Origin: Candidatus Poribacteria bacterium
Lineage (GTDB): Bacteria > Poribacteria > WGA-4E > JAJDTR01
Direction of reading: 5' to 3'
Assembly: GCA_965222225.1 (NCBI GenBank)
Contig: CBDCTK010000002.1
Location: 2,848,001-2,912,000, forward strand
DNA length: 64,000 nucleotides
The position numbers and the translations under genes were made by a program. The notes under the pieces are model-generated. The model was not told the origin of the DNA and did no database searches. It saw nothing but the letters and a program-made list of their open reading frames with translations. Positions 2,631 to 63,142 of the stretch are shown piece after piece; positions within the stretch are counted from its first letter, which is position 1, and each line of letters starts with the position of its first letter.

Positions 2631-2667
2631 GAGAACTCTATCGCGCGCGCTATTCGCTTGCTTGATC
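2631..2667 (-). repeat. 37-nt micro-element copy inside the REP GTAGGGTGCGCACTGCGCACC
   Basis: Reverse complement GATCAAGCAAGCGAATAGCGCGCGCGATAGAGTTCTC, flanked by tggt / gcagtgcgcaccctac. Confidence 0.85.
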
Positions 2668-2755
2668 GCAGTGCGCACCCTACAATATGTCGTGGGCGGT
2701 AAGAGAAGAAGGGAATCGGGAATTTATGATTGTCGATCGATTTCCGATAGGGTTG

Positions 2756-4852
2756 TTAGTCGGTGTATTGGATTATGCGGGCATCTAACACGGATAGACC
2801 GCGCTCATGAACCTTGACTGGGTTCAGATCGAGTTGGGCGATACTGGGATTTTCTATGAGGAACGTAGAGACGTTTAGCAGCGCGGCGCGGAGAGATTCG
2901 AGGTTCACCGGTTTGCCTCCTCGAATGCCGGTGAGCAACGGAAAGCCTTGAAGCTCCCGAATCATCTGATCCGCGTCATCCGGGTTGATGGGGCAGACCC
3001 TGAAAGAGACATCTCGCATCACCTCGACATAGACACCGCCAAGTCCAAACATCAGCGTTGGTCCGAACGTAGGATCGTTTAAGCCGCCGATAATGACTTC
3101 AACGCCATCGCATTCCTCCATTTTGCTCAGCAGTGCGCCGGTGATTCGAGCGTCCCGCTTGAACTTTCGTGCGTTGGCGATGACTTCGTCAAAGTCTCTA
3201 GCCACAGCGTCGGGAGCATTTAACCCTAACTTCACGCATCCGATGTCCGACTTGTGCAGCACGTCCTCGGAGATTATCTTCAGCGCGACCGGATAGCCGA
3301 TTTCCTCGGCAGCGTCGATTGCGCCCCGCGCTGTTGTGACGTGGCGGTACACCGGGAAGGGCAATCCGGCGGCTCCGAGCATTCGGTTTGCCTGATGTTC
3401 GAGGAGCGGTTTTGTGCGGTCGCTTCCGGGGTTGGGGCACGTTGTGGTCAAACCATCAAAGCATCGTTCAATCTTCGTTGCTCTGTATCGGGCGTACCGA
3501 ACTAACCCCGCCATCGTATTTACGGCGTCGTGGTGATCCATGAATAGCGGTACCCGGTTTTCTCGAAGCGTGTCGAAGGACTTGGAGTCCGCATAGGAGT
3601 AGTAGGTATAGATTAGGAGGGGCTTATCGGTTTTTGCGATGAGAGCAGCCATCTTCTTCGCCGACGATTCCACCTCGGGCGCGACATTCGGATTCAGGAA
3701 ATCCCACCCGGCGAACCCGCCGACAACGATCAATCCGTCAATCTCATCCCCTTCAAGCATAATCTCCGCGACTTCGGGAATCTTCTCCCACATCGCCAAA
3801 TCGACCGGATTGGTCACCTGCCCTATTTCGGGTACAATCTCCTTTATCCGCTCTTGATGTTTGAGGGAGAACGTCGGCAAATCCAGTCCTTTCAAGGTGC
3901 ATGCATCGGCGGTTAAGGCGCAATCGCCGCCGCCCTCGGACAGGATTCCGACGCGGTTCCCTTTCGGCAGTTTGCCGTGACTCAGCGCCAGCAGGAGAGA
4001 GCTGAACTCTATCGCGCTCTCGACCCGCAAAGCGCCGCACTGTTTGAAGGCAGCCTCATAAACCTCGTCTTGCCCCGCGAGGGAGGCGGTGTGACTTGAG
4101 ATGACACGCGCGCCCTGCTCGGTGCGACCGGTTTTCATCACAATGACCGGTTTGACTTTGGTCGTCTCCGCCACCTCATCCAAGAACGTTCTGCCATCGT
4201 TTATCCCTTCAATATGCAGACCGATCGCGTTGACATCGTCATCCTCTCTCAGGAATCGGATAACCTCATGAAATTGAACGTCCGCCTGATTCCCCAAGCC
4301 GATGATGTAGCGGAATCCCAAGCCTCGCTTAATTCCGGGGAACGCAAGCGATCGCGTGAGATTCCCGCTCTGGCCGACCAATCCGACGCCCCCCACCCGG
4401 ATATAGCCCGACAGCAGCCCGTCAAACTTTGCGGGAGCGCTGAAAAAGCCGAGGGTGTTGGGGCCAATGACGCGAATCCCCTTCTCCTTTGCTTGATGGA
4501 CGAATTCGTCTTGGGCAGCTTTGCCAGCTTCGCCGAGCTCCGCAAATCCGCCCGTGAGGAGCATGATGCCTCTGACGCCCTTCTCGACGCACTCTTCAAC
4601 CGAGGTGGCGGCAATCTGTCGGGCGGTCACCACGATTGCCAAGTCGATTTCATCGAGAACATCAAGGATGCTGGGATAGCATTTCAGGTCGAGGATTGAG
4701 TCTGCTCTCGGGTTTATCGGATGAATACGGCCTTGATAGCCGTAGTTTTTCATGATGGAGAGGTAAGTATAACTGAAACTGGTGGGGTTGCGTGAGGCGC
4801 CGATGAGTGCAACGGATTTGGGATTGAGAATATTGCTTAGCGGGTTTGACAT
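2756..4852 (-). CDS. Acetate/acyl-CoA ligase (ADP-forming), fused alpha-beta with ATP-grasp domain
   Basis: P.SVALIGAS, GPNTLG, SHTASLAG (phospho-His), GYPVALKI, HKSDIG, FGPTLMFGLGG, LDLNPV. Confidence 0.92.
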   Translation of the reverse strand: MSNPLSNILNPKSVALIGASRNPTSFSYTYLSIMKNYGYQGRIHPINPRADSILDLKCYPSILDVLDEIDLAIVVTARQIAATSVEECVEKGVRGIMLLTGGFAELGEAGKAAQDEFVHQAKEKGIRVIGPNTLGFFSAPAKFDGLLSGYIRVGGVGLVGQSGNLTRSLAFPGIKRGLGFRYIIGLGNQADVQFHEVIRFLREDDDVNAIGLHIEGINDGRTFLDEVAETTKVKPVIVMKTGRTEQGARVISSHTASLAGQDEVYEAAFKQCGALRVESAIEFSSLLLALSHGKLPKGNRVGILSEGGGDCALTADACTLKGLDLPTFSLKHQERIKEIVPEIGQVTNPVDLAMWEKIPEVAEIMLEGDEIDGLIVVGGFAGWDFLNPNVAPEVESSAKKMAALIAKTDKPLLIYTYYSYADSKSFDTLRENRVPLFMDHHDAVNTMAGLVRYARYRATKIERCFDGLTTTCPNPGSDRTKPLLEHQANRMLGAAGLPFPVYRHVTTARGAIDAAEEIGYPVALKIISEDVLHKSDIGCVKLGLNAPDAVARDFDEVIANARKFKRDARITGALLSKMEECDGVEVIIGGLNDPTFGPTLMFGLGGVYVEVMRDVSFRVCPINPDDADQMIRELQGFPLLTGIRGGKPVNLESLRAALLNVSTFLIENPSIAQLDLNPVKVHERGLSVLDARIIQYTD

Positions 4853-4865
4853 GCGATTCCGTTAT

Positions 4866-6014
4866 TCATCTTTGCTGGACGGGTGTCTCGTTAGGAATAA
4901 TGTCCACGGGGTATTTCGACAGATTTTCCGCTCCGGACTCCGTGATGAGGTAGGTGTTCTCAATGCGTGCGCCGAGTCGAGCCTCCGGCGTGTATCCACC
5001 GGGTTCGACGCAGACCACATCGCCGACGCGCAAAATGCCTTCGCGGTCACGGTTGAGGTCGGGAGGTTCGTGCATACGGATTCCGATGCCGTGTCCGGCG
5101 TGATGCACCAAGCCGGAATCCGCAAGCGCCGGGTGCTCCCGAATCTGCTCATCAAGCGCACGCCATATTTCAGTGCCCCGCGCGCCGGGCTTGAGCAGCG
5201 ATGGCACGGAATCCTGCACCGCTGCGATGTGGTCAAAGATGGACTGTTGCAGATCGGTCGGCTCACTATCGACAATGAAGGTGCGCGCCAAATCCGACCA
5301 GTACCCTCGGCAGCACGTGTGACCGTCGAGGATATAGAGTTCTCCTCGCTCAATTCGTCGGTTGCGTGCGGGACCGTGTCGTTCTCCGCACTGGTAATCA
5401 CCGTCGTGAAACACTCGCTCCCCTGCCTTGAGCATCGCGCCGCGTTGGCTTTCAGCCAGGACCTCCAACTCGTTCACGCCCGACCTCAGGATAGCCTGTG
5501 CCGCATCATAGGAGGCGAGATTCACTTGCACACTCCACCGGAGCATCTCTAGCTCATCGGGATCTTTGCGGCGCTGCACCTCCGAGATGATACCGTCAAT
5601 TGGAATAGACTCGTTCGGCTGCAGTGCGCTATCTACAGTTTGCCGGAGTAAACTGGAGACGGATTCGATCTGGATTCCAAGCTGTTGAACACGCGCCGTA
5701 TCTTGGAGTTTCAGCTTGACGACGGAATTCAGTTGGCGCATAAGATCGAAGTTCAGCGTATCCAGCTGATGCCATTCGTAGGCGATCCAGTCATCGACGC
5801 ATGAGACCCCGTCATCTGTGTGGGCGACGACCCAACAATCTCCGTCTGCCTCCAGTAACATGAAAACCGGGAAGGTGTCTGGCAGTAGTTTTCCCGTAAA
5901 GTAGTAGACATCGCGGAAATCCATGAACACGGCGGCATCAATGCGCTGCTCGGCGAGTCGTGCTCGAAATCGGTTTTGTCGGTCTAGGCAGCCGTTTTCA
6001 GTTAGTGTAGGCAT
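4866..6014 (-). CDS. Xaa-Pro peptidase family (M24)
   Basis: GYWSDLART, HHAGHGIG..HEPP, VEPGGY, RIENT. Confidence 0.9.
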   Translation of the reverse strand: MPTLTENGCLDRQNRFRARLAEQRIDAAVFMDFRDVYYFTGKLLPDTFPVFMLLEADGDCWVVAHTDDGVSCVDDWIAYEWHQLDTLNFDLMRQLNSVVKLKLQDTARVQQLGIQIESVSSLLRQTVDSALQPNESIPIDGIISEVQRRKDPDELEMLRWSVQVNLASYDAAQAILRSGVNELEVLAESQRGAMLKAGERVFHDGDYQCGERHGPARNRRIERGELYILDGHTCCRGYWSDLARTFIVDSEPTDLQQSIFDHIAAVQDSVPSLLKPGARGTEIWRALDEQIREHPALADSGLVHHAGHGIGIRMHEPPDLNRDREGILRVGDVVCVEPGGYTPEARLGARIENTYLITESGAENLSKYPVDIIPNETPVQQR

Positions 6015-6057
6015 CAGTCTATCCTTGGGCGAAATGGCAAGCAAATAGTCTTTATGA

Positions 6058-6266
6058 TAGGGCTTACACAGTTAAACATCTAAGGTTCGCAGTAGGGAAT
6101 TTACTGCCCGTTTCTACACAAAACATTATGGCTGACGGCTTGAAGGCAAGTGAACGACAGATGGACGCGGAATGAATTTCGCTACTACAAGCCTACTGTA
6201 GGAGCGATCTCCCGCGGCAGATGCGCAGTGAATAGCACTATTACGAGCCGAACTGCGTAAGTCCTA
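6058..6266. mobile_element. MITE-like element with 16-bp imperfect TIRs that contains REP-like hairpins
   Basis: TAGGGCTTACACAGTT (6058-6073) vs AACTGCGTAAGTCCTA (6251-6266) is 14/16 complementary. Similar ends occur at ~16683-16697 and 22116-22131. Confidence 0.65.
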
Positions 6267-6411
6267 AAAAAGTCGAGTCAGAGTGGACTGAAAGGAAAGT
6301 GCCCTAATTTGTATATTGACAGAGAATCTTGCTAAATCATACTATCAAGGGCACATAAGATTTAGTCATCAAATATTCTGCTTAGCATCAACCAAGTTGA
6401 AAGGAGTGCCA

Positions 6412-6918
6412 ATGGGTACTATAACATATTTTGCATACGGTTCAAACATGTCCGTAAAGAGACTCCAGCAAAGAGTTCGCTCTGCCGAGCCGAAAGAAAG
6501 GGGAGTTCTTCGTTGCCACCGTCTCGCATTTCACAAGGTCAGTAAGGATAAATCCGGCAAGTGCGATATAGTGTCTTCAAAAGAATCCGACGTGGTATGG
6601 GGGCGCTTGTATTACATCAACGGCAAAGAGGAGAAACGCCTAGATCGTCATGAGGGATTGGGAAGCGGTTACGATAAAAAATTCGTTACGGTCGAATTGG
6701 ATTGTGGCTGCACGGTTTGTGCCATGACTTACTATGTTGAGGATGATACGAAGAAAAATCCAAGCTTGAAGCCTTATACCTGGTATAAAAAGCACGTGCT
6801 GGTGGGTGCAAAGGAAGCATGCCTGCCTCCAGACTATATCAAGAAGATAGAAAGAGTTGAAGCCAAAAAGGATTGCGACAAAAAACGTGAGTGGGATGAA
6901 CTTGCGATATACTGCTAG
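6412..6918 (+). CDS. Gamma-glutamylcyclotransferase family protein
   Basis: YFAYGSNM, VWGRLY, LDRHEG; SD AAGGAG before ATG 6412; AT-richer than neighbours. Confidence 0.9.
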   Translation: MGTITYFAYGSNMSVKRLQQRVRSAEPKERGVLRCHRLAFHKVSKDKSGKCDIVSSKESDVVWGRLYYINGKEEKRLDRHEGLGSGYDKKFVTVELDCGCTVCAMTYYVEDDTKKNPSLKPYTWYKKHVLVGAKEACLPPDYIKKIERVEAKKDCDKKREWDELAIYC

Positions 6919-7006
6919 AGAATTCTCCTTTTGATGCACTTCCCGTTTGCCCAAGCCACGGACGATTTTACCGTCCACAGAGTGCGAGCGGTCATGTACT
7001 GCTAAT

Positions 7007-7200
7007 GTAGGGAATAAAGATCAAGTGACTGAACAGGATTAACTGAGTGGTTAACGAAGGCGATAGAAGATCCCGTGCGATAGAAATCCTCTCCGAATCG
7101 CGACCTATTGTCGGGAATCGGAATTCCCTTCTACAGGCGACGCACGTAGGAACGATCGCCGGGGGGCGACCTTCCATCGCGAACAGAGCTCGCTCCTACA
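7007..7200. repeat. Cluster of GTAG-type REP hairpins with a nested pair of 37-nt micro-elements (7019-7090)
   Basis: Outer copy GATCAAGTGACTGAACAG|GTGCGATAGAAATCCT is split by inner copy 7037-7074. REPs gtcgggaatcggaattcccttctac, gtaggaacgatcgcc and tcgcgaacagagctcgctcctac. Confidence 0.8.
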
Positions 7201-7243
7201 GAAAGTGCACAATATACAATTATTCCCGGTATATGAATTGGCA

Positions 7244-7666
7244 TCAGCTCATAGGCTCAAATTTCGGGATGCTGATTTCAGGCGTAACATCGTCAAAGGT
7301 TACTTGGACGCGCATACCGACTTCCACCGCCGAGGGGTCGATGTTGACGACGTTGGAGATCATGCGTGCGCCGTCATCCAGATCGATAATCGCGTAGACG
7401 TAGGGCACCTCGGACTCGAAACCCTGATGTGCAACTTGGCGGATAATCGTGAAGGAGTAGACGGTGCCAAGTCCGGTTGACTTGATCCAGCCGAGATCCT
7501 CGGATAGACACCGATAGCACATCACGCGCGGGAAGTGGATGACCTCTTCGCAGGCGTTGCATCGCTGCAGAAAAAGTTCGTGCCGCTTCGTCGCTTTCCA
7601 GAACTCTTCCGTCTCGGGCTCGATTGTGGGTAACGGCTTGGTATATTCGACTTCTGTGGACATCAT
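7244..7666 (-). CDS. Zn-ribbon OB-fold protein (DUF35, ChsH2-like)
   Basis: QRCNAC...CYRC, GTVYSFT, PYVYAII.LDDGARMISN. Confidence 0.92.
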   Translation of the reverse strand: MMSTEVEYTKPLPTIEPETEEFWKATKRHELFLQRCNACEEVIHFPRVMCYRCLSEDLGWIKSTGLGTVYSFTIIRQVAHQGFESEVPYVYAIIDLDDGARMISNVVNIDPSAVEVGMRVQVTFDDVTPEISIPKFEPMS

Positions 7667-7680
7667 GCTATCTCCTGCCT

Positions 7681-8871
7681 CTACGGGATTTCATTGCCAA
7701 AAACGAGCGTGCATTGGTCCGCCATGGAGCCGCCGTTGCCGTTGGACAAACCGAATGTGGCGTCCTCAACTTGGAGTTCACCGGCTCTGCCCATCAGTTG
7801 GCGGGCGGCTTCGATCGAATGCAGTAAGTGGATGCCGGGGTTCGGCTGACCTCTGCCGAGTTGACCGCCATCGGTATTGAGCGGCATTTCTCCCTTGTAG
7901 GTCAGATCGGTCTCTTCGACATACGCCGCTCCCTCTCCCTTTTCGCAACAGCCGATATCCTCAAGCGAAATCACGACGGTAATGGTATAGCAATCGTAGA
8001 GTTCGACGAAATCCATATCCTTTATTCCCAATCCCGACATTTCAAATGCATACTTTGCTGCAAGCTTGACCGGGGAGGTGGTGAGAGAGCGCTCGTAACC
8101 GTAGGCTGGATTCCACAGTCCTCTGTCAAACTGCTGCCCTCCGCCCAACAGATAGGCAGGGGGATTTTTGGTGTCTTTTGCCCGTTCTGCCTTCGTCATG
8201 ATCAGTGCGCAGCCGCCGACACACGGCATGACAATCTCGAACAGGTGGAGCGGATCGCAGATGAGCCGTGAATTTAGCACATCATCTACGCTGACCTGCT
8301 TTTTCAGCAAGGCATTCGAGAACTTCGAGGCATGATACCGCGCGTTGATGACCACATGCGCGAACTGGTCATCTGTCGCGTTGAATTCGTGCATATAGCG
8401 CCGCTTAATCATGGCGTATGCGGAGTTGTTGAACATTGGCCCGTAAATGCTGTCGAAATCCCGTTCAAACGCCGTGCCGGTCTCCAGTCCGAATTCGTAG
8501 ATGCGCTTGGGATCCATGACGCTTCCGGCGACAATCAGGATATTGTTGCACAGGCCTCCCGCCAGCGCCGCGGCTGCGTAGAGGATTGCGGCATTCCCCG
8601 ATGCGCCGCCGCGATAGACATTGTCAAGAAACCGCGGGTGGAGCTGAAGGTATTCCTGCAAGTCTTCCGTCCAAGTCGGTTCCTCGTCGAGCGGACATAT
8701 TGAAATTAAGCCGTCAATGTCGTCCTTCGTCAGTCCGGCATCCTCAATGGCGAGCTTTGCCGCCCGGCAATATTCGGTGTAATTCGATCGGTCTCCGGGA
8801 TTGCGCTTGAGAAATTCGGTTTCGCCGTAGCCGACGATTGCTGCTTTGCCTTTTATGCTCATCTGTGGCAA
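7681..8871 (-). CDS. Thiolase-family protein (SCP-x/Ltp2-like)
   Basis: AAIVGYGET, ELYDCYT, P.NTDGGQL, EAARQLMG.AG..QV; adjacent to its DUF35 partner. Confidence 0.92.
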   Translation of the reverse strand: MPQMSIKGKAAIVGYGETEFLKRNPGDRSNYTEYCRAAKLAIEDAGLTKDDIDGLISICPLDEEPTWTEDLQEYLQLHPRFLDNVYRGGASGNAAILYAAAALAGGLCNNILIVAGSVMDPKRIYEFGLETGTAFERDFDSIYGPMFNNSAYAMIKRRYMHEFNATDDQFAHVVINARYHASKFSNALLKKQVSVDDVLNSRLICDPLHLFEIVMPCVGGCALIMTKAERAKDTKNPPAYLLGGGQQFDRGLWNPAYGYERSLTTSPVKLAAKYAFEMSGLGIKDMDFVELYDCYTITVVISLEDIGCCEKGEGAAYVEETDLTYKGEMPLNTDGGQLGRGQPNPGIHLLHSIEAARQLMGRAGELQVEDATFGLSNGNGGSMADQCTLVFGNEIP

Positions 8872-8884
8872 TACCTCCTAAAAG

Positions 8885-8916
8885 CAGTGGCCAGTTTCCA
8901 GTGGTCAGTGATCAGT
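8885..8916 (+). repeat. Heptamer tandem repeat (CAGTNNN)x4-5
   Basis: cagtggc cagtttc cagtggt cagtgat cagt. Confidence 0.7.
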
Positions 8917-8949
8917 AAAAACGGTAGTGTCCTGCCTCAATAAACTCGC

Positions 8950-9909
8950 CTAATAGGGTTGGGGGCGGTTCTTCACGAGGAAGACCGGCGCCGGTGGCAA
9001 GCCTTCCCAACCGCGAGAGCCGTCCGAATGCTTACGGATGGTGAATCGGTCGAAAACATCTCCCGCCAGATTGTTCGCCTCGGCGTTCAGCCTATCTTCC
9101 GTCAATTTTATCTTGAGATAGTGCATCTGATGAACCGACACCACCGCATCGAACCAGTGTGGCACCGCATCCATCGGATCTACCGGGCGGTAGGCGTCGC
9201 AGCCGCCGCCCAGCGTGATGAATGCCGTGCCTCGAGAGTCGTCGCGTACCCGGCTGACGGGGTTCACCGGGTAGGTACGCTCGTAGAAGTGTTGATGACC
9301 TCGAAAAACTAGATCGACGCCCTCGCGCCACGCAAGGGGCTCCACCGACTCGGAGATTTCGGCTAGACCGGGACCGTCGTTAGGCGCGTCCAAGCGGCAG
9401 AAGGCTGTGCCGGGTTCGTGGTGAAAAACGAATCGCCAGCGCGCATCCCGAGAACGTTCGAGATCTCGGACAAACCATTCAAGTTGGGTCATTCTGCTTT
9501 CGGGCAGGTCAAACTCCTCGCGCAGCACGCTGTGGGAGAGCGGGGTAACGCATAAGCCGGTGAAATGCGCCGGACCGGCATCGAACGAGTAGAAAAACCC
9601 CGGGACGTATCGCTCCAATCTCTCAAGCCATTGTCGACGTGCGGCGTTGAGATCGCCGTCGAAATCGTGGTTTCCCGGAATCGGACGGAGCGGTATCCCC
9701 GCCTCGGTCAGCGGGCGGATGCGTTCGAAAAAGGCGTCCCACGGCGCCGGATTCGCGCCGTTCGCCATGACGAGGTCGCCGGGTATGACGACGAACTCGG
9801 GGTTTTCGGCGACGAGGCGTTCAGCTAGATGTGTCAAGTTGTCGTCGGGGATTTGCCAATCCGCAACGACGCAGAAGGTGAGTTCGGTGGAGTCGAGAGT
9901 GTTTTTCAT
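8950..9909 (-). CDS. Calcineurin-like metallophosphoesterase (purple acid phosphatase-like)
   Basis: VADWQ, GDLV, GNHD, HHEP, GHQHFYER. Confidence 0.9.
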   Translation of the reverse strand: MKNTLDSTELTFCVVADWQIPDDNLTHLAERLVAENPEFVVIPGDLVMANGANPAPWDAFFERIRPLTEAGIPLRPIPGNHDFDGDLNAARRQWLERLERYVPGFFYSFDAGPAHFTGLCVTPLSHSVLREEFDLPESRMTQLEWFVRDLERSRDARWRFVFHHEPGTAFCRLDAPNDGPGLAEISESVEPLAWREGVDLVFRGHQHFYERTYPVNPVSRVRDDSRGTAFITLGGGCDAYRPVDPMDAVPHWFDAVVSVHQMHYLKIKLTEDRLNAEANNLAGDVFDRFTIRKHSDGSRGWEGLPPAPVFLVKNRPQPY

Positions 9910-10359
9910 GGTTTTTTAAGCTTGTATGCTGATTTGGAGTAACCCGCGGGTTCGTCTTAAGGTTGTACTATTACAAGCATTTTCTCCGAGATGCTTCATC
10001 GAAGTAAATCAGCAATACAGCTTTACGACCCTGTAACAATTGCCCCGCGAATCCCATATCAATTATTCCGATTATACCGCCAGTTCTCTATGTTTTCAAT
10101 AGTGTCTACTTCTACCTCTGCCAAGCTGTAGGACAATGGCTAGGAAAAACGCCCAACATGGTACCGGCGCGCCCAATCACATCATGGATACGGGAGCATA
10201 CACAAGAACGCCCACAGCGACAATAAGCAACAAAAGCAGTGGTAGTAGCACTTGCAAGAGTCCTTGATGAGTCTTCGAAGTCATTGAAGTCCATTCCTTT
10301 CCAATCCGAGTTAGAAATTCAGTGCATGCAAACGGGAAGGCGTTACGCAACCGTTTATG

Positions 10360-14247: not shown

Positions 14248-14250
14248 CTT

Positions 14251-15237: not shown

Positions 15238-15363
15238 GTAGGAGCGATCTCCGAATTGCGACCTATCGGGAATCGGAGCCGCGATCGGGGAGAAGATCCT
15301 TATGGGATCTCTATCGCACTCACTAATCGCTCGCTTGATCTATTCGCTCAGTTGATCTCCTAC
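15238..15363. repeat. REP pair with nested micro-elements (full copy 15304-15340, split copy 15293-15303 + 15341-15357)
   Basis: gtaggagcgatctccgaattgcgacct ... gggatctctatcgcactcactaatcgctcgcttgatc ... ctcctac. Confidence 0.8.
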
Positions 15364-21867: not shown

Positions 21868-22160
21868 ATAGTCATCACATTCATATTTACACGTACTTAA
21901 AGAGAGACATTGGCGATTTGAAGATTGTTACGACAAGCCTACCGTAGGAGTTCAAGCGAACGGATAGTGAGTGCAATAGAAAGTCCCGTGCGATAGAGAT
22001 TCCTCTCCCGGTCGCGACCTCTTGTCGCGAGTAAAACTCGCTCCTACAGAAGACGTGCAATAAAGGGATCTCTATCGTCCTCGCTATTCGCTCCCTTGAT
22101 CGCCACTCCAAACAGAACTGCGTAAATCCTATATGTGTAATTCTTAGTTGCAATGACTAT
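21868..22160. mobile_element. MITE-like composite with REPs and three micro-element copies (21950-21987 +, tail 21988-22003, 22065-22101 -)
   Basis: Ends ATAGTCAT...TTACAC and GTGTAA...ATGACTAT are imperfectly complementary; internal AACTGCGTAAATCCTA end at 22116-22131. Confidence 0.6.
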
Positions 22161-52149: not shown

Positions 52150-52150
52150 A

Positions 52151-54904: not shown

Positions 54905-55007
54905 TTACAATCCCGATTATTATTGTTTGAGGAATACTCTGTTAATTCTTGAGTTTTGAACAATCCTGTTTGACTTCATCATTCATTCGGAAGGAGAAAT
55001 AATCGAC

Positions 55008-55844
55008 GTGAGTGAGCAAAAAAACGATGCGACATATACGATGGGACGCACCAAAGAGGAGACAGATCGGCTAATACAGCAGTCAGGACTGTACGACGAC
55101 GTGACGAAACGTTTTCTCGGGGAAGCCGGTCTGTTCAGCGGGATGAAAGTCCTTGATATTGGGAGCGGCGCCGGAGATGTTGCGATGGCTGCGGCTGAAC
55201 TCGTTGGCGATGACGGGGAAGTTATCGGCGTGGATATGAACGCCGAGATTCTCGAAACTGCCCGAGCACGGGCGCAGGGCGCGGGATTCGCAAACATCCA
55301 GTTCCTGGCAGGTGACTCGCGAACGCTAGACCTTCCCAACGACTTCGACGCCCTTATCGGACGTCTCGTCCTGATGTATATGGCGGATCCTGCAGATGCC
55401 TTGAGAGAGCTTAAAACGCGCCTGCGCCCCGGGGCTATCGTTGCTTTTCAGGAGGTTGATTTCACATCCATCTCGGCGTTTTATGCAGATCATACCCCCT
55501 TGATGAACAACCTAGCCTCGTGGGCTGTTGAGGTCTTTAAGCGTTCAGGGGCGCATACCGGAATGGGTTTGGACCTCTACGGTACTTTTATGGATGCCGG
55601 TTTGCCGGAACCTGCTCTACAATATACAGCGCCGATGGGCGGCCCGGAGGCGTGGGGCGGTTACCAATTCGTCGCCAACAGTTTCCGCAGTATTCTCCCG
55701 CTTATGGAAGCCTACGGGATTGTGACCGCGGAAGAGGTCGATATAGAGACACTTCCCCAGCGACTTCGAGGCGAGGTTGTTTCGTCGAAGCGCCCGATTC
55801 TCTTGCCGCCGCATGTGACGGCTTGGGCACAACTTCCATCGTAG
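55008..55844 (+). CDS. Class I SAM-dependent methyltransferase
   Basis: VLDIGSGAGD, FDALIGRLVL. Confidence 0.93.
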   Translation: MSEQKNDATYTMGRTKEETDRLIQQSGLYDDVTKRFLGEAGLFSGMKVLDIGSGAGDVAMAAAELVGDDGEVIGVDMNAEILETARARAQGAGFANIQFLAGDSRTLDLPNDFDALIGRLVLMYMADPADALRELKTRLRPGAIVAFQEVDFTSISAFYADHTPLMNNLASWAVEVFKRSGAHTGMGLDLYGTFMDAGLPEPALQYTAPMGGPEAWGGYQFVANSFRSILPLMEAYGIVTAEEVDIETLPQRLRGEVVSSKRPILLPPHVTAWAQLPS

Positions 55845-55905
55845 AATGAATGGTTAATTTACGGATTGAAACGACATGAAAAAATTGAGGGAGAAGGAAC
55901 TCTAA

Positions 55906-57126
55906 ATGACAAATCAACGTATTCGACTGAACGAACACGGATTCATCGGCTGGTTTTGGATACCGCTATTACTTTTGGGTTTCGTGTTTGCAGGGTGTGA
56001 CCAACTCCAACAGTTGCTCGCTCCATTGCTGAGCGAAGATGATGAAACGATTAAAATCGGCTTTATCTATACAACACCGAACCGAATCAACAGCCGTTAC
56101 GGCGCGGAATTGGCGACGAACGAGTTGAACGAAGAGGGAGGAGTACGGGGTACGCCGATAGAGCTCATCGCTCACGGCATACCAACACAGCGCCTTATCA
56201 GCGAGAACATCAGCGATACCGAGTACGTCGCGGGAATAGCAGAAGAGTTGATTACCGGGGAAGGAGTAACGGCAATCGCAGGGCCCAACCGTTCGACCCA
56301 TGCCGTTATCGTTGGGGAGATTGCTCAACGCCACGGGATACCGATGATAACCACAGGTGCGACCAACCCGTCCGTTACCGCCGCCGGTGACTTCGTATTC
56401 ATGGCAGCTTTCACCGACGACTTTCAGGGCAAAGTGATGGCTCAGTTTGCCGTCCAAGATTTGGAAGCCAAATTCGCAGCGGTTCTCACGCATGCGGGAG
56501 ATGTCTATTCGGAGGGCTTATCAAAGACCTTCATCGCCAACTTTACCGCTTATGGCGGCGAGGTCGTGGCTGAACAGTTTTACATGGCGGGCGACACCGA
56601 TTTCACCGCCCAGTTAACCGCAATTGCCGAAGCTGTGCCGGACGTAATCTTTAGCACCGGTTTCATCCCCGAAGTCCCGCTGGCGGTTCGGCAGGCGAGG
56701 GATGAGATTGGCATTACAGCAACCTTCCTCGGCGGCGATAGTTGGGATAACCCGGCGTTGCTTCCCGAAGGCGGGGCGGCGGTCGACGGGAGTTTCTTTA
56801 GTAGTCCCTTCTCTGTCAAAGCTGATCCGGGCGACTTGGGTGAAGATGCCCATCAATTTGTTAGCGCCTACACCGGGATGTTTAATGAAGTGCCCGATGG
56901 CGGGGCTGCGCTGGGATATGACGCCATACGGCTGCTGGTTCAGGCAATGCGCCGAGCGTCCGACTTGACGCCAACAGCGATTCGCGACCAGATTGCAGCG
57001 ACCGACAACTACAGCGGAGCAACCCTCATCCTGGGCTATGATAAGAACCGCCACACCGCCAAGAGTGCGGCAATCAACCGTGTCGTTGATGGCGAAGTTC
57101 AGTTCTACAAACTAATCCAGCCGTAG
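55906..57126 (+). CDS. LivJ/LivK-like ABC substrate-binding lipoprotein (paralogue 2)
   Basis: VFAGC; collinear with and highly similar to paralogue 1. Confidence 0.9.
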   Translation: MTNQRIRLNEHGFIGWFWIPLLLLGFVFAGCDQLQQLLAPLLSEDDETIKIGFIYTTPNRINSRYGAELATNELNEEGGVRGTPIELIAHGIPTQRLISENISDTEYVAGIAEELITGEGVTAIAGPNRSTHAVIVGEIAQRHGIPMITTGATNPSVTAAGDFVFMAAFTDDFQGKVMAQFAVQDLEAKFAAVLTHAGDVYSEGLSKTFIANFTAYGGEVVAEQFYMAGDTDFTAQLTAIAEAVPDVIFSTGFIPEVPLAVRQARDEIGITATFLGGDSWDNPALLPEGGAAVDGSFFSSPFSVKADPGDLGEDAHQFVSAYTGMFNEVPDGGAALGYDAIRLLVQAMRRASDLTPTAIRDQIAATDNYSGATLILGYDKNRHTAKSAAINRVVDGEVQFYKLIQP

Positions 57127-57148
57127 CTAATGCACAGACTACGTAGCG

Positions 57149-57176
57149 TTCAGGGGTTCTGGTACGAACCCCTGAA
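57149..57176. terminator. Hairpin TTCAGGGGTTC-TGGTAC-GAACCCCTGAA after the binding-protein gene
   Basis: 11-bp stem preceded by GTAG; could be a REP or a terminator. Confidence 0.5.
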
Positions 57177-57232
57177 TCCGGCGAAATCGGAATCAAAGCG
57201 CCCGTAACGAATCAAGTAGTAAACGTGGGCGA

Positions 57233-57269
57233 GGGATCTCTATCGCCCTCCCTATCCGGTCGGTGGATC
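57233..57269 (-). repeat. 37-nt micro-element copy
   Basis: Reverse complement GATCCACCGACCGGATAGGGAGGGCGATAGAGATCCC. Confidence 0.75.
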
Positions 57270-57463
57270 CTCCGGTTTTATCCAATCCGCCGTGCCATTA
57301 ATCAAACTACCCTCCCAACGAACCAAGCCAAGACTCCAACCTCCGAACTCGTCATTTCAAATTCTTTCTACATTTTTTTCTTTCGAGCATAACCTCCAAC
57401 CTATACAGGGTGTCTAATTAGTAGTTTCACCGATGCTTTCATTCTTTGGATCTGGTGGGTGCT

Positions 57464-59221
57464 ATGTATTCAGCCGACGAAAAGTTAGTGTCCCAAACAC
57501 TCGCGGGCGATCGTGATGCCTTCGGCGTGCTGATGCACAAATATCAGGAAATGGTCTACGCCTACGCCTTTCAGAAGGTGAGGAATGAGGCTGATGCCCA
57601 GGACATCACGCAAGAAATCTTCCTGCAAGCATACCGTCATCTTTATCAACTCCGGCACCCGCATCTCTTCCGAAGCTGGCTGTATACAGTCATGTCCAAC
57701 GAGTGCAAGCGCTGGTTGGTGCGAGTCACGAAAAGACGTCGACGCGAGATTGTCTTGGAGGAGGCTGGGGACGAAACGTCACTCATTGAACCTGCCCATG
57801 ACGTACCCGTAGAAGGCTGGCAGGTAGATCTTGAGCAGGCAATCTCCGCGCTCTCTGACGAAAATCGGGTCGCCGTGTCGATGTTCTATATGGGTGATTG
57901 TACGCTGAAGGAAATCTCCGAATTCCTCGGTGTCTCCGTGAACACCGTCAAGGGTAAGTTGCATCGTGCCCGTCAGCAACTTGGGGCTGCTATGTCCCAA
58001 CACTACGGCAGGCTGTTGAAAAGCCACAAACTCAAAGGAGGTTTTCTCATGCAAATCATGGAACAGATTCGCTATATACCCGCGCCAGCAACGGGATTCG
58101 CGTGGAGTGGTGCAACTATCGGCAAGACCGTCTTTTCGCTGATTGCGGCACTGTGCATATTAATTGAACTTATTGGCGGACGAAACGATTCGCTGACAGA
58201 GTTGCCACTGAATCAAACCGAGGTAGCGCCAGCAGGCACAAGCAGATGGCCGATCGAGGTCGCCCTTCTTGCGTCCGTTCCTTACTCCACGCGCTCATCC
58301 ATTACGGGCATTCCGGAGCCGACGGGAAAGCGACCACTGGCTGCCTCCAACCGTGCCTCAACAGTGCCGAGGCGCAACTCGACTAACGGAGCGCCAATGC
58401 CACACGGTGGAGGTGCAGAAAACCCTAACGCACAATTCTCGGCTGCCATGGCAGAATACGCCGCCGAAAAGCTAACCTATTCCGGTCGTGTTGTCAACGT
58501 TGACGGTGAGCCGGTCGAGGGGGCGGAGATTCTATACGCCGTAAATTGGAGGCGCACCAAACTCGGTACACGCACGACGGCGGATGGTGCATTCCGTTTT
58601 GAGGTGCCGCGTCCGCAGCCTAGGAAGTGGGAGGGCCGCTTAGATATCGTTGTTACCCACTCTGATTACGCGAACTTGTGGAGGAAGCTGTCCCTCAAAG
58701 ACACGGAGAATGTTGAAATTCAACTCGACGCGCCGGGAACCATCGCCGGGAGAGTTATGAACGAATTAGGCGAACCAATACCGAGCGCGGAAGCCACGAT
58801 CCAGTTCACGGTAGGTGGAGATGCTTTGTCGCCCCGAATTGGGGACTACGAGGATTATACGATGTTGGAGATCTTTCATCGCACGCCTCCCGCCAAGACC
58901 GATGAAAACGGTGAATTTGCGTTCCGCAATCTGCCAACACGAGCGACCACGGTGCTTTATGTGCAAGGTCCCGGATACGCCAAGACGAAACGCATCTTTG
59001 TGCCGGTCGGCAGGCAAGACCTTGAGTTCCGGTTAAAGCACGAGGCACGCATTGAGGGACGCCTCAGTTACGCCGAAACAGGTGAACCTGTGGCGAACGC
59101 GAAGGTGGACGACCGGAGCGCCGCTCCGCATGATGACTGGTGGAGGGCAAGTGTTGATGAGAACGGGGATTTCGTCGTGAAGAATCTCGATCCCGGTACT
59201 TATACCATTTCGCTTGAATAA
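57464..59221 (+). CDS. ECF sigma-70 factor fused to a TM segment and carboxypeptidase-regulatory-like repeats; possibly 3'-truncated
   Basis: DAQDITQEIF, FRSWLY, LKEISEFLGVSVNTVKGKLHRAR; then SGRVVNVDGEPVEGA, AGRVMNELGEPI, DENGEF. Confidence 0.88.
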   Translation: MYSADEKLVSQTLAGDRDAFGVLMHKYQEMVYAYAFQKVRNEADAQDITQEIFLQAYRHLYQLRHPHLFRSWLYTVMSNECKRWLVRVTKRRRREIVLEEAGDETSLIEPAHDVPVEGWQVDLEQAISALSDENRVAVSMFYMGDCTLKEISEFLGVSVNTVKGKLHRARQQLGAAMSQHYGRLLKSHKLKGGFLMQIMEQIRYIPAPATGFAWSGATIGKTVFSLIAALCILIELIGGRNDSLTELPLNQTEVAPAGTSRWPIEVALLASVPYSTRSSITGIPEPTGKRPLAASNRASTVPRRNSTNGAPMPHGGGAENPNAQFSAAMAEYAAEKLTYSGRVVNVDGEPVEGAEILYAVNWRRTKLGTRTTADGAFRFEVPRPQPRKWEGRLDIVVTHSDYANLWRKLSLKDTENVEIQLDAPGTIAGRVMNELGEPIPSAEATIQFTVGGDALSPRIGDYEDYTMLEIFHRTPPAKTDENGEFAFRNLPTRATTVLYVQGPGYAKTKRIFVPVGRQDLEFRLKHEARIEGRLSYAETGEPVANAKVDDRSAAPHDDWWRASVDENGDFVVKNLDPGTYTISLE

Positions 59222-59261
59222 TAGTGCATATGATGTCTCAATTATATCGTCCATTTTCTCT

Positions 59262-59637
59262 GTAGGAGGGAATCAAGCGAGTGAATACCGAATGATCAAC
59301 TGAGCGATTAGCGAAGGCGATAAAGATCCCCTTGCCCCGCCGAATTTGCACGGAGACAAGGTTGATTATTTCGCTCCAAGCAAGTCTCTTCACTTAATCC
59401 ACGTAATCAATGCACTTCCATTTTATAGAAAAGGTATTATTATCTATTCGCTTGCTCCCACCCCTGTGCAGGTAGGAGCGATCTCCGAATCGCGACCTGT
59501 CGGGAATCGGAAGGGATTTCTATCGCACTCGCTATCCACTCGCTTGATTCCTCCTACCAAATACACACGCCGTAAGGCATCTCTATCGGGATTAGCTATC
59601 TCCCTTGCTGCTCACTCTGTTGATCGTTCGGTTGATT
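59262..59637. repeat. REP cluster with five micro-element copies (59271-59330 nested +, 59513-59549 -, 59576-59637 nested -)
   Basis: gtaggaggg-aatcaagcga...; gtaggagcgatctccgaatcgcgacct; gtcgggaatcggaa[module]cctcctac. Confidence 0.8.
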
Positions 59638-59750
59638 CTCAACGGTTGACACCACCGCGGGTTCGTGTTATTTTTGGAGACGTGATTCGCAAACAATCCG
59701 ACAGATAGAAAGTCGCGTCCGCAGACTGCGGCAAGCCCGGAGCGTGGAAA

Positions 59751-60041
59751 ATGAGAGACGAAGATAAATCCCAAGTGCAACTCATCAAGGAATTGCAACT
59801 CATTCGTCAGTGCGTGGCGGAATTAGAGCAGGACAAAGTCGAATACCAGCGGCTAATGAAGCAGCTATTGCTCGAAAACGATGAGTCGGTTAGGGAGTAT
59901 TTCGACATTTACTTCCATGCCCAAGATATCATTGTCTCGGTTGATGTGGAGACGGAAAAAGTGCTCAAGTGCAATATGGCTATGATGGAAGTACTGGGCT
60001 ACAGCAGAGCGGAGATTGTTGGACATCCGATCTTTAAGTTA
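59751..60041 (+). pseudogene. 5' fragment of a PAS-domain sensor protein, truncated at the IS end
   Basis: DEDKSQ.QLI.EL coiled coil, then PAS (CN.AM.EVLGYSRAEIVG) cut at 60041. Confidence 0.8.
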
Positions 60042-61290
60042 GGGACTTAGTAGTTAACTGCTTTTTGGTCGATTTGCTTGCTTTTCTCTTCTTAATGTAC
60101 AATAACTTTAGACAGTGTTCGGAATCTTGATTCACACTAAAATACATCTCTATAAGAGAGAAATGGAGGCATATCATGTTGACCAAGCGTTTGTACATGC
60201 TCGCGGGAGCATTGCGGGTTATCTGCGGGATTTTAATTTCCAACACTATGGGATTTTCAGCACACCATGATGTTGTCGTTGACAGAATATACCGATAGCC
60301 AAACAATTCATGTGGCTCAGGTGAAGCATTCATCAAAAAATCTTATGAAAATCTCATCATCTTTTCTGCGATTATATTTCCAGCAAGACTCCATGATATA
60401 CAGTGGCAGCCACTTCTTGCTGTAGTGATGATGCGTTCCGTAGAATGACCTCTTGACACAAGCCCAAAACGACTCGATGGTGTTGGTGTGAGTTACGCCG
60501 TCCTCAGAAACATATCTCTCTTGGTGATGGATAACATGTCTTTCGATATCTTCGTCCAGACTATTGTAAGAGCGAAATTCATCAGTCATAAGAATAGACT
60601 CATCGGGTGAGACATTGCTAAGGATGAATTCTCTGATATTTTCACCAGATAGAACCTTCATGAATTTAGCAACCACCCGACCGCCTCTCTCGACTACGCC
60701 GATGACGGGAGATTTATTTGTGCCTCTACCTCTCTTAGATTTTGCTCTGGGTTTGCCGCCGACATAGGTTTCGTCCGCTTCAACTATCCCTTTCAGCAAT
60801 TCATCACTATCACTCATTTTCTCACGGAGGCGCATTGCCATATACCAAGCGGACTTTTGATTCATGTCCAAGTCACGAGCAAGCTGACAACTCGATATGC
60901 TTTTCTTGGCATTGGAAAGAATTGAGATAGCCAAAAACCATTTCTGGAGAGGTATCTTGGTACCATGGAAGATGGTTCCTGCTGTAGCCGAAAAGCTAGA
61001 TTCACAATCGTAGCAATTCCAACCAGTAGTAATGTCGTTTTTGTTCTTGCGTCCAACTTTTTCACTGCCACAGTGGATACAGCAAACACCGTCCTTCCAA
61101 CGTTTTTCCTCTATAAATCTGAGACAAGATTCTTGATTTGGAAACTCTTTCATAAGATTCAAAATGTCCATAGCAAACTCCTACGAGAAGAATAGTCACT
61201 ATGGACATCTACGTGTGACGAAAAGATTTACGACAGGGTACCAAGTTTTATGTTTGTCGTCAGTCTAAAAGCTACAAGCTACTAATTCCG
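60042..61290 (-). mobile_element. IS1595-family insertion sequence
   Basis: Imperfect TIRs GGGACTTAGTAGTTAACTGCTTTT vs rc CGGAATTAGTAGCTTGTAGCTTTT (17/24); low GC; no target duplication. Confidence 0.8.
60317..61171 (-). CDS. IS1595 (ISXO2-like) DDE transposase
   Basis: Zn ribbon CIHC..CYDC, EADETYVGG, TDEF, HTNTIESFW. Confidence 0.95.
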   Translation of the reverse strand: MDILNLMKEFPNQESCLRFIEEKRWKDGVCCIHCGSEKVGRKNKNDITTGWNCYDCESSFSATAGTIFHGTKIPLQKWFLAISILSNAKKSISSCQLARDLDMNQKSAWYMAMRLREKMSDSDELLKGIVEADETYVGGKPRAKSKRGRGTNKSPVIGVVERGGRVVAKFMKVLSGENIREFILSNVSPDESILMTDEFRSYNSLDEDIERHVIHHQERYVSEDGVTHTNTIESFWACVKRSFYGTHHHYSKKWLPLYIMESCWKYNRRKDDEIFIRFFDECFT

Positions 61291-62929
61291 TTGATTATTC
61301 TGGATAATCATATTACCGATCTCCGTCCGCTTTCTAACCTTACAGAACTTGTTGAACTCAATGCACGAGATAATCCCATATCCGATGTGTCTCCCGTATC
61401 CAACTTGCGTAAACTGAAGTACCTCGATTTGAGCCGATGTAATATCGTTGATTTGCAACCACTTGCAGACCTCACACAGTTACACGTGTTGCAACTAAAT
61501 CACAACAACATTGTGGATATACGACCGCTTGCTTCGCTGACGAGGCCCTATAAACTTGAATTACAGCACAACATTATCACCGATTTTAGTCCGGTTTCCC
61601 ATCTCGCACTCGACACATTCTATTTCGATCAATATTGCATTTTACCGCGTCTGCCGCTCTTACCCCGTTTAACCGGGATGACCTTCTCTACCGTATTTAT
61701 GCCTACGTGGTTCATGCCTCACGATTCCGGCAGCCATATGCCTTTTAGTCCCGCAGACCAGTTTTTTGACATGGCCTATCGTTCTGCCGACAGTCAATTA
61801 GTTTCAGATAATCTCTATAATTCTATTGCAATCCGTGACGCCATCATCGCAAATAATCCTACTACAGTTTTTCTCGCCTACCTCCCTTGGCACAAAGCAT
61901 ATTTTACCCAATTACCCAAACATTCCATGTTATGGGCTCGCAACATCAGCGGCGAATTGCTCCTTCAAGATTTCGCCACCGGCGCCTATCTCGATTACAC
62001 CAACCCACTCGCGCGAGCCCTTGTCGTTAAAATGGCATCTGACATCGATAAATGCGGACTATACGACGGCATTGTACTCGACGCCTGGGGCTACGATTTG
62101 TTGCCGACGGATGTTTACAGTTCCGAATCGCAAACAGCCGCCCGCCTCGCTCTCGTAAAAGAAATTCGTGCCGCCACACGCCCAAATTTTTTAATACAAG
62201 TCAATTCGAATAGAAATCGTATCCCCGACACAGCACTGTATATCAACGGTCTCTCAATGGAAACCGGCATTCCCGGTTGGTTTGATGAGACCGACGTGCA
62301 TCTCGCCCTGCGTGAAACTGCACACGCACTACTTTGGGCTGAATCTAACCTTCGTTATCCACAAATAAACGGTGTGGTTGGTTGGGCTATACTCAGTCAA
62401 TCTCCCCACAGCCTCGAAAATCAACGTTGGATGCGTCTTCTTACAGCTTTAACGCTTACTCATTCTAACGGCTTTACGTTGTACCAGCACGGTCCAAATA
62501 CCTGGTATGACTTTTGGGATGCGGACTTAGGGCGTCCAGTGGGGGAGAAGGCACAGGTGTACGAGGGGCGATCAAGCGAGGGGACAGCGAGTGCGATAGA
62601 GATCCCAGGGCTTTATTCGCGAGTACACGAATGGATGGGCAGTGTACAATCATAGCGGGGCGCCACAGGTCATCACATTGCCGGAGGAGGTGCAGGGGGT
62701 AGCCAGCGGACTAGTAAACGTAGAGCATGCGCTGCCGAACCTCGACGGCGAGATGTATTTGCGGGTGACGCCGAAGAATCCGGCGGATGTGAACGGGGAC
62801 GGGGTGGTGAATATTTTGGACTTAACGCTGGTGGCGCAGGGATTTGGGACGGATAGTTTGAAGGGGGATGTGAATGGGGATGGGGTGGTGAATGTGTTTG
62901 ATTTGGTGTTTGTGGCGAACCAGTTCTGA
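61291..62929 (+). pseudogene. LRR + GH-like domain + dockerin/EF-hand protein; 5'-truncated by the IS and frameshifted near 62607-62618
   Basis: Internalin-like LRRs (N.ITDLRPLSNLTEL), CGLYDGIVLD, WDADLGRPVGEK, REYTNGWAVYN, two DVNGDGVVN repeats. Confidence 0.85.
62570..62606 (+). repeat. 37-nt micro-element inside the LRR-dockerin CDS
   Basis: GATCAAGCGAGGGGACAGCGAGTGCGATAGAGATCCC, 3 mismatches to consensus. Confidence 0.85.
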
Positions 62930-63070
62930 ATCACGGATTAAACGGATTACGCGGATTAGAGGCGGACAATCCTATAATCCACGACAGTTTTGAAATCCTG
63001 AAGCCAACGCATACGCATAATTAGGCAACTGACGCCGGTTGCATCGAAGACAATTGGTCGAATTCAATCA

Positions 63071-63142
63071 GATCAAGCGAACGATCAAGGAAGCGAATAG
63101 CGACCGCGATAGAGATCTTCTAGTGAGTGCGATAGCAAATCC
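63071..63142 (+). repeat. Nested micro-element pair
   Basis: GATCAAGCGAAC[GATCAAGGAAGCGAATAGCGACCGCGATAGAGATCTTC]TAGTGAGTGCGATAGCAAATCC. Confidence 0.8.

Follow-up and report, generated by a model that had tools for sequence, protein, structure and literature searches.

A 37-Nucleotide Hairpin Element Dispersed in Candidatus Poribacteria Inserts into REP Hairpins and into Itself and May Move as Single-Stranded DNA

Small dispersed repeats (SDRs; SDR1-8, especially SDR4-6) were reportedly described by Elhai et al. in 2008 (Genome Res 18:1484) in Nostoc punctiforme and its relatives, and they are 21 to 27 nt long, shorter than the 37-nt element considered here. In the passages cited, SDR5 has a precise insertion point, between bases 3 and 4 of GCGATCGC (PMC4390886), and SDR-like repeats were not found outside the Nostocaceae among cyanobacteria rich in highly iterated palindrome 1 (HIP1) (PMC5861425). 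Repetitive extragenic palindromic sequences (REPs) are a second point of comparison; in the excerpt cited, REPs are bound in single-stranded form by the Escherichia coli enzyme TnpA-REP, which requires a mismatch in the stem, cleaves with little sequence specificity, and carries out strand transfer (PMC3333891). Here we describe a 37-nt repeat (hereafter, the 37-mer) that was recognized in a 64-kb stretch of DNA (the window; positions 2848001 to 2912000 of contig C2) from G000, a Candidatus Poribacteria metagenome-assembled genome (MAG) of 5.70 Mb in two contigs. By likeness of description rather than of sequence, SDRs appear to be the closest named class, and they supply the named precedent that the original prediction, made from the window sequence, had thought lacking. 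Literature searches returned no description of the 37-mer or of SDR-like repeats in Poribacteria.

The 37-mer resembles SDRs in its fixed length far below 100 nt, its dispersal and high copy number, its occurrence within other repeats and within further copies of itself, and its presumed mobility, and for neither is a mover identified in the passages cited (PMC4390886, PMC5861425, PMC3116915). As in the excerpted account of SDR5, insertion is precise and falls in a short G/C-rich word, the main self-target of the 37-mer being the GCG of GCGATAG; a further likeness is that some copies lie in short words of the AATCCGCG type repeated in tandem. Orthologous presence and absence in relatives, by which SDRs are recognized, was found as well, with the closest relative (G005) and other genomes of the same genus differing from G000 at window positions 15304, 21950/22065, and 57233. 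The differences are that SDRs belong to another phylum and that G000 shows no HIP1 enrichment (117 GCGATCGC in 5.6 Mb).

In structure, the 37-mer is built like a REP or like an end of IS200. It shares with REPs, bacterial interspersed mosaic elements, and REP doublets forming hairpins (REPINs), which are linked to REP-associated tyrosine transposases (RAYTs), a short intergenic hairpin, a conserved 5' tag, an obligatory stem mismatch, high copy number, and compensatory stem changes (PMC3333891, PMC3116915, PMC3733652); strand-specific recognition as single-stranded DNA, described for REPs in the excerpt cited, would be another likeness if it holds for the 37-mer (PMC3333891). In addition, the 37-mer has the same skew bias as the GTAG REP of G000, and Y1 genes occur in every high-copy genome. 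It differs from REPs in its tag, which is GATCAA (positions 1 to 6, conserved at 90 to 98%) and not GTAG or CGTC, in having only four Watson-Crick pairs, in the mostly identical orientation of neighboring copies, in inserting into REPs rather than beside them, and in that no single-copy RAYT was found to be specifically associated with it. The ends of the IS200/IS605 insertion sequences (IS608 and ISDra2) and their miniature derivatives are comparable in the absence of terminal inverted repeats and of target duplication and, as far as the excerpts describe them, in features that may extend to the 37-mer, namely, one active strand, hairpin recognition, cuts at a fixed distance from the hairpin on both sides, and replication coupling (PMC3333891, PMC6006769). 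The 37-mer departs from them in forming a single hairpin per 37 nt instead of two subterminal hairpins, in the loss of target bases, and in lacking a fixed preceding tetranucleotide. Rickettsia palindromic elements are likewise small repeats translated in frame within genes, as are the 37-mer copy at window position 62570 and two paralogous sites, but they are palindromes of ~100 to 150 nt, and only 16 of 920 copies of the 37-mer lie within open reading frames (ORFs) of 300 amino acids or more.

Taken as a whole, the 37-mer can be read as a very small, noncoding, nonautonomous mobile element of the SDR kind that is moved as single-stranded DNA by an enzyme of the HUH/Y1 type, an interpretation that we favor tentatively and rate somewhat short of an even chance. 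Within it, movement as single-stranded DNA is probable; that DNA rather than RNA is the moving form, and that the enzyme is of the HUH class, we infer from the observations below. The genome-wide search that followed the original prediction returned 920 copies in G000 at ≤10 mismatches, 917 of them on the chromosome, compared with none in a shuffled genome even at 12 mismatches, and covariance-model searches found the element in 17 of 151 sampled Poribacteria genomes. The G000 copies comprise 807 distinct 37-mers. Information content is high at positions 1 to 30, moderate at positions 31 to 37, and approximately zero outside them, so that the boundaries are real and as sharp as had been claimed; just upstream, position 0 is C in 46% and G in 38% of copies, a weak consensus, and the flanks are diverse and in many cases unrelated. 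Both ends are sharp, and full-length copies far outnumber truncated ones. The original prediction of a fixed-length module without coding capacity that inserts into REP hairpins, further copies of itself, and genes is thus borne out, and the lack of coding capacity means that the 37-mer must be moved in trans.

The copies are mostly solitary (549 of 710 clusters hold a single copy) and irregularly spaced, which rules out a CRISPR repeat array, and the window gave no match to Rfam families at the gathering score. The biggest cluster has mixed orientations. Neighbors less than 400 nt apart share the same orientation in 210 of 271 pairs and do not typically form REPIN-like inverted pairs. A pattern search of a viral contig collection gave no match, and carriage by phages is thus not supported. 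By a crude gene call covering 80% of the genome, 832 of the 920 copies are intergenic. A few tandem arrays with the TCTTGTAG linker occur in G000, and a 930-nt region (C2:2705782-2706712) holds 11 copies of mixed orientation together with many orphan tails and resembles a tandemly duplicated block of ~260 nt.

The 37-mer consists of the 6-nt 5' tag, an imperfect hairpin, a conserved GCGATAG, and a 7-nt tail that varies by lineage. Pairs 7:23, 8:22, 11:19, and 12:18 enclose an almost invariant tandem mismatch (G9.A21 and A10.G20), and the loop reads G-R-A-Y-A. Watson-Crick or G.T combinations occupy the four pairs in 865, 854, 871, and 882 of the 920 copies, respectively, and each pair shows three or four pair types across copies. 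Covariation was assessed on 147 distinct copies, drawn from the window and from loci of relatives (Poribacteria MAGs) with a selection pattern in which the paired positions were left as N. Pairing was found in 95.7% of cells, in comparison with 62.7% in shuffles (a level that 0 of 500 shuffles reached) and with 23 to 60% when the partners were slid, while double-sided changes numbered 267 versus 47 in shuffles. The same four pairs were recovered independently by RNAalifold. The hairpin is therefore conserved by covariation, and the description of the element as nonpalindromic proved half right. It is also strand specific: all four pairs are kept on the written strand in 751 of the 920 copies but in only 457 when the complement is folded, and G.T cells outnumber A.C cells (456 versus 64). 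These copies fall into 235 stem haplotypes, 41 of which have five or more copies. An outer helix between GATC(1-4) and GATC(32-35) was considered and dropped, as no covariation was seen between these segments (A occupies position 32 in 40% of copies, while position 4 stays C in 95%); a helix between ATC(2-4) and GAT(26-28), proposed by RNAalifold, is invariant and therefore neither supported nor refuted.

The 37-mer inserts into two host hairpins and into itself at fixed points and always in one orientation. The first host, REP1, is one GTAG REP family of G000, for which empty and occupied forms were compared. Its empty form is 25 nt long and present in 92 copies, next to which an empty REP reconstructed in the original prediction turned out to be 2 bases short. 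Site A, after base 16, is occupied in 16 copies, all 60 nt long and together carrying 10 stem haplotypes, and site B, after base 9, in 15 copies, all 59 nt long with 6 haplotypes, one of which accounts for 10 copies. A reversed 37-mer was found in none of the 53 occupied forms. Both points are preceded by TGC, and the bases replaced by the 37-mer are GC at site A and GCA at site B; where both are filled, a tandem period of 41 nt results. Of the second host hairpin, 7 copies are empty (35 nt) and 22 are occupied (69 to 71 nt), and the latter have lost GCG or CG. Self-insertion most commonly removes the GCG at positions 24 to 26: the head of the outer copy stops at position 23 in 84 copies, and its tail resumes at position 27 in 82. 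Other events delete 1 to 3 bases at positions 18 to 21. An outer head lies directly upstream of 213 and an outer tail directly downstream of 145 of the 920 copies, and GTAG lies ≤17 nt upstream of 251, while the inverse arrangement with CTAC downstream is found in 25. A gapped search aligned 450 of the 920 reconstructed empty sites to a paralogue across the junction, with a gap of 3 columns being commonest (125 cases) and only 4 sites being gap free. Because target bases are lost, an exact 22-mer search recovered only 20 of 920 empty paralogous sites. Thus, the claim that no target duplication occurs stands, but it omitted the loss of 1 to 3 target bases beginning with G. Nested copies also show GA microhomology at the 5' junction.

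These insertion data bear on two other explanations. The first requires no dedicated enzyme and is, in our estimate, unlikely: a replicating polymerase would stall in a hairpin, jump by microhomology to another occupied repeat, and return, so that the 37-mer would spread by template switching or gene conversion between repeated hosts. The targets are indeed hairpins, the hosts are repeat families, and the single haplotype in 10 of 15 copies at REP1 site B fits a composite spreading as a unit; the junction microhomology (G or GA), the variable loss of 1 to 3 bases, the link to replication polarity (described below), and the existence of orphan tails and of mismatched heads and tails agree with it as well. 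It is less easily reconciled with 10 haplotypes and an exact 37-nt length at the identical REP1 point (site A), with copies in many unrelated flanks and in a gene, or with boundaries in 920 copies that are sharper than 1 to 2 nt of homology would lead one to expect, and the patchy distribution of the element (2 of 20 genomes of genus g6 and 0 of 100 of family f2) points to a requirement for a specific acquired factor. The second, which we consider highly improbable, holds that the 37-mer is a passenger module of larger composites of REPs and miniature inverted-repeat transposable elements (MITEs), which would be the real mobile units. GTAG does precede 251 copies closely, one haplotype does dominate REP1 site B, and a copy-bearing segment of the window (59199-59439) is found again, as a ~240-nt block, in several genomes; on the other side stand flank information of approximately zero, the 92 empty REP1 copies beside occupied ones, the 10 haplotypes at one REP1 point, self-nesting at several positions, and copies in genes and in unique flanks. 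Haplotype diversity, flanks, and occupancy show that the 37-mer is not just a fixed part of one larger MITE, the outcome that the original prediction had named as fatal to it.

The orientation of the 37-mer follows GC skew. Its written strand lies on the locally C-rich strand (±50 kb) in 622 copies versus 295 (p 4e-27), and the bias remains when one copy per 2 kb is counted (p 9e-12) and outside REPs and other copies (272 versus 154). Since the strand of the 37-mer itself is G rich, this bias is not an artifact of composition. Empty REP1 copies share it (67 versus 24). No link was found between orientation and the direction of flanking genes (304 copies codirectional versus 273 against, in spacers between codirectional genes) or regional gene bias. 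The cumulative GC skew of C2 has its maximum at ~0.85 Mb and its minimum at ~2.51 Mb, with further turns at ~3.2, 4.3, and 4.6 Mb, reversals that stem from either large inversions or assembly joins, and the leading and lagging strands are therefore assigned from local skew under the usual rule of a G-rich leading strand.

An RNA route, one of two mechanisms put forward in the original prediction, would have read-through transcripts trimmed to the hairpin unit, reverse transcribed, and joined at nicks in a target-primed manner. G.U wobble would be tolerated on one strand only, as seen here; tandem G.A pairs and the G-R-A-Y-A loop are classic RNA motifs; and the small target deletions and GA microhomology at nested 5' junctions resemble untidy joining by a polymerase. 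Orientation, however, is unrelated to neighboring genes and strongly related to GC skew, both ends are sharp, with full-length copies far commoner than truncated ones, and the many coexisting haplotypes speak against a single short RNA master template. Moreover, the reverse transcriptase domain RVT_1 (E ≤ 1e-5) is patchily distributed: 3 of 9 other same-genus genomes have it, mostly with weak hits, as do 2 of 4 in g4, a genus of another family, and genomes without it still carry 330 to 860 pattern matches. A reverse transcriptase is thus poorly supported as the mover, and we regard the RNA route as very unlikely. The alternative suggestion of a RAYT/HUH-coupled transfer fits better, by the strand-specific fold, the GC skew, and the tie to the REP strand, although none of the Y1 subfamilies compared tracks the element.

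Comparison among relatives, whose genes flanking the compared sites are ~76 to 97% identical in the same genus, revealed turnover of copies between species. At the 15304 site, the inner copy is missing from G005, in which a single copy with another haplotype lies at the REP head, and in other species, this spacer contains between one and three copies, in either orientation. The spacer of the 21950 and 22065 copies, 360 nt long in G000, measures ~60 nt in G005, and the G005 counterpart of the intact 57233 copy is split after position 12 by a further copy. Because the species are only ~80 to 90% identical, the compared relatives yielded no perfectly clean empty site at an orthologous position. 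Clearly orthologous copies (in G001/G009 and G004/G007) retain their haplotype, indicating that the haplotype diversity at one REP point reflects separate insertions rather than rapid change in place. A strict pattern occurs 561 times in G000, 329 to 859 times in each of 9 other same-genus genomes, 114 to 137 times in each of the four g4 genomes, and twice in g2; it was absent from 26 other same-order genomes searched, and a reversed control pattern gave no occurrence in the genomes searched. By the covariance model, 134 of the 151 sampled Poribacteria genomes are without the element. The core (positions 1 to 30) is conserved across two families of the order, with g4 loci (e.g., L043, L049, L064, L067, and L090) sharing the same 30-nt core and ending in TCTT... 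rather than AGATCCC in the last 7 bases. A scan of all species genomes gave at least 125 stretches, and the 80 matches listed all come from Candidatus Poribacteria MAGs.

A motif used by the host and kept by selection at each site, such as a site bound by a nucleoid protein or an RNA-binding protein or a structure at transcript ends, would make mobility old or incidental. Such a role would account for the pairing kept in 751 of 920 copies, for the core shared by two families, and for 832 intergenic copies of 920 in a genome that is ~20% intergenic. It would not predict that orientation shows no preference relative to flanking genes, that copies interrupt one another and destroy the outer motif (an outer head precedes 213 of 920 copies), that spacers occupied here are empty or differently occupied in relatives, that only 17 of 151 Poribacteria genomes have the element, or that pairing is lost in old in-gene copies, and we therefore judge it quite unlikely.

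Candidate movers were sought among Y1 transposase genes. Y1_Tnp genes are present in all 9 other same-genus genomes and all 4 g4 genomes, and G000 has one IS200-like and three RAYT-like Y1 genes. The IS200-like gene is a single copy at C2:3080255-3080728, scores above the cutoff of NF033573, and is flanked by inverted REP1 units; this locus is likely the REPtron of the main GTAG REP family of G000. Copies of the 37-mer lie ~50 to 250 nt from this gene and its relatives in most g1 loci. In G000, 74 genes have copies on both sides, and the flanking of the IS200-like gene is thus not special in itself.

Several observations weigh against movement as single-stranded DNA by an HUH enzyme. The copies beside the IS200-like gene lie inside REP1 units and may be there only because of the REPs, and this gene has relatives with 72 to 77% identity in element-free g6 genomes. 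Y1 genes as such also occur in genera counted as element free (7 of 7 genomes in g6 and 8 of 10 in g3). When three of the four Y1 proteins of G000 (all except L156) were compared with one element-bearing and three element-free g6 genomes and one g4 genome, none of the three distributions matched that of the element, and the searches for Y1_Tnp and RVT_1 tied no enzyme to it. Nearest-neighbor DNA folding misses the covarying hairpin (-0.3 to -4.2 kcal/mol, with nonsignificant z-scores), so that the fold would need a protein or noncanonical G.A stacking, and pairing probably matters within a protein complex. Tolerance of G.T is as compatible with RNA as with single-stranded DNA. Known IS200/IS605 transposition removes no target bases, in contrast to the 1 to 3 bases lost here. 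Finally, if the leading strand is G rich, the folding strand would lie mostly on the leading-strand template, a bias of opposite sign to the strand preference described for IS608 in the excerpt cited (PMC3333891). The HUH route is thus weakened in four respects, in that no cognate gene was found, only one hairpin is formed, target bases are lost, and the skew has the opposite sign; it is nevertheless favored because orientation is tied to replication polarity and is constant with respect to the GTAG strand of REPs, and because of the properties of TnpA-REP in the excerpted account (PMC3333891).

On the single-stranded DNA reading, the written strand would fold as a single-stranded nucleic acid and be recognized by an enzyme encoded elsewhere, most likely of the HUH/Y1 tyrosine type (the RAYT/IS200 kind) and acting on single-stranded DNA at replication forks. 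This enzyme would cut at both sharp ends of the unit, which would then be joined into the same strand of a GTAG REP, of the second host hairpin, or of another copy, in place of 1 to 3 target bases beginning with G. Copies with intact pairing would act as sources for new copies, which would explain the coexistence of hundreds of stem variants that still pair. A more specific and more doubtful possibility, which we would not expect to hold but consider worth stating, is a minimal "swap-in" unit, in which the 27-nt imperfect hairpin, the 6-nt tag, and a short tail suffice for a trans-acting single-strand DNA enzyme that exchanges the unit for a GCG-like trinucleotide. If this were true, the unit would be excised and exchanged in another folded hairpin at the replication fork, and the enzyme would be either a REP-associated Y1 protein used parasitically or a class not yet linked to transposition.

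The window copies illustrate these arrangements. A Hamming scan with the consensus of the original prediction gave, at ≤12 mismatches, 10 copies, starting at 2631-, 15304-, 21950+, 22065-, 57233-, 59294+, 59513-, 59589-, 62570+, and 63083+ (signs denote strands), and 3 matches at ≤3 mismatches, compared with none in 100 shuffles. A covariance model trained on the 147 copies and run with filters off (E ≤ 1) also gave 10 window matches, nine of which were already in the training set; the sole independent one is 7037-7073+ (E 1.6e-4). The model missed the degenerate 59589- copy (12 mismatches), so that, of the eleven full copies originally proposed, 10 are solid and one is decayed. The six split or partial copies, verified by eye on the window sequence, are located as predicted. 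No copy lies in the core block at 33.9 to 49.6 kb, as had been noted, and the covariance-model scan found none in the wider interval from 22101 to 57233.

The first copy (2631-2667, minus strand, 49.2 bits) sits at site A of REP1 in place of GC in the 3' arm, in the 60-nt occupied form. At 7019-7089 (plus strand), the head of an outer copy (positions 1 to 18; 7019-7036) and its tail (positions 22 to 36; 7075-7089, followed by a REP hairpin), both read by eye, enclose an inner 38-nt variant with one extra tail base (7037-7074; 39.4 bits, E 1.6e-4, outside the training set). A similar nest on the minus strand comprises the decayed tail remnant of an outer copy (15290-15303), an inner full copy with 2 mismatches from the consensus (15304-15340, found by both the Hamming scan and the model), and the outer head (positions 1 to 17; 15341-15357), which directly follows the GTAGGA head of a REP; the outer parts were read by eye and with the help of relatives. 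A full plus-strand copy with 8 mismatches (21950-21986), also directly after a GTAGGA REP head, is followed by an extra tail fragment consisting of C and positions 22 to 37 (21987-22003, by eye), and a full minus-strand copy (22065-22101) lies within the same 360-nt spacer; both full copies were found by the scan and the model. The copy at 57233-57269 (minus strand, 55.7 bits) is full and intact.

Further along, a plus-strand head fragment (59271-59287; positions 1 to 17 with G1 changed to A, by eye) stands behind a GTAGGAGG REP head and precedes a full plus-strand copy of stem haplotype CT...AG (59294-59330; scan and model). A full minus-strand copy (59513-59549, 55.2 bits) in the right arm of an inverted REP pair adjoins a CCTCCTAC head. 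The nested pair at 59576-59637 (minus strand; scan and by eye) consists of an outer tail (59576-59588), the decayed inner copy (59589-59625), and an outer head (59626-59637), and that at 63071-63142 (plus strand; scan, by eye, and model) consists of an outer head (63071-63082), a full inner copy (63083-63119), and an outer tail (63120-63142). Tandemly repeated short words of type AATCCGCG are present at 63140-63190; such words host 37-mer copies elsewhere in the genome, and they recall the heptamer repeats that host SDRs in Nostoc. Two segments of this part of the window, 59199-59439 (~240 nt) and 59627-60041 (~415 nt), are dispersed repeats with 73 to 85% identity at many places and in several same-genus genomes; the former contains 37-mer copies, some of which may accordingly travel as passengers. 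An IS1595-family insertion sequence is located at 60034-61300 (DDE_Tnp_IS1595 and a zinc ribbon, with an ORF at 60317-61171 on the minus strand), where the GC content falls to 0.43, and its end (60034-60300) is found at >30 genome places at 97 to 100% identity.

The copy at 62570-62606 (plus strand) lies in a gene for a leucine-rich repeat (LRR) protein with a dockerin-like region, where it is read in frame and adds ~12 residues. Excision of this copy, with 0 or 3 bases restored, gives an ORF of 533 to 534 amino acids ending in a dockerin-like repeat. Two paralogues are occupied at the same site (C2:3738217 and C2:3939996), and in the former, the frame continues through the 37-mer to the natural stop. 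The window gene is shortened by a separate 2-base deletion just downstream and not by the 37-mer. Stem pairing has decayed in these old in-gene copies. The LRR gene (61291-62950) is a member of a large family of paralogues that share a conserved dockerin-like region at the C terminus, and the 330 nt at this end have dozens of 70 to 89% matches per genome.

New here are the G.A hairpin and its covariation, the replacement of a target trinucleotide, the association with the REP strand and with GC skew, the distribution across the phylum, and the copies read in frame within genes. With its 37 nt, the element is among the smallest mobile DNAs known and near the lower size limit of mobile DNA, and it falls beside one described class, the Nostoc SDRs, for which a mechanism has been lacking since 2008. 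Hundreds of natural "experiments" per genome define what its mover needs, i.e., a G.A hairpin on one strand, sharp ends, a replaced target of 1 to 3 nt beginning with G, and a REP-like relation to strand and skew, constraints that can be tested by Y1 biochemistry and by phylogenetic profiling of the sampled Poribacteria genomes, 17 with and 134 without the element. If the swap-in mechanism were true, the 37-mer would be a hyperparasite of the REP/RAYT system with a mechanism distinct from the "peel and paste" of IS200/IS605, and it would offer a general explanation for the movement of SDR-type elements. In these bacteria, the 37-mer remodels intergenic regions, disrupts REPs, and extends proteins in frame by ~12 residues, and it can confuse the assembly and annotation of sponge-symbiont MAGs.

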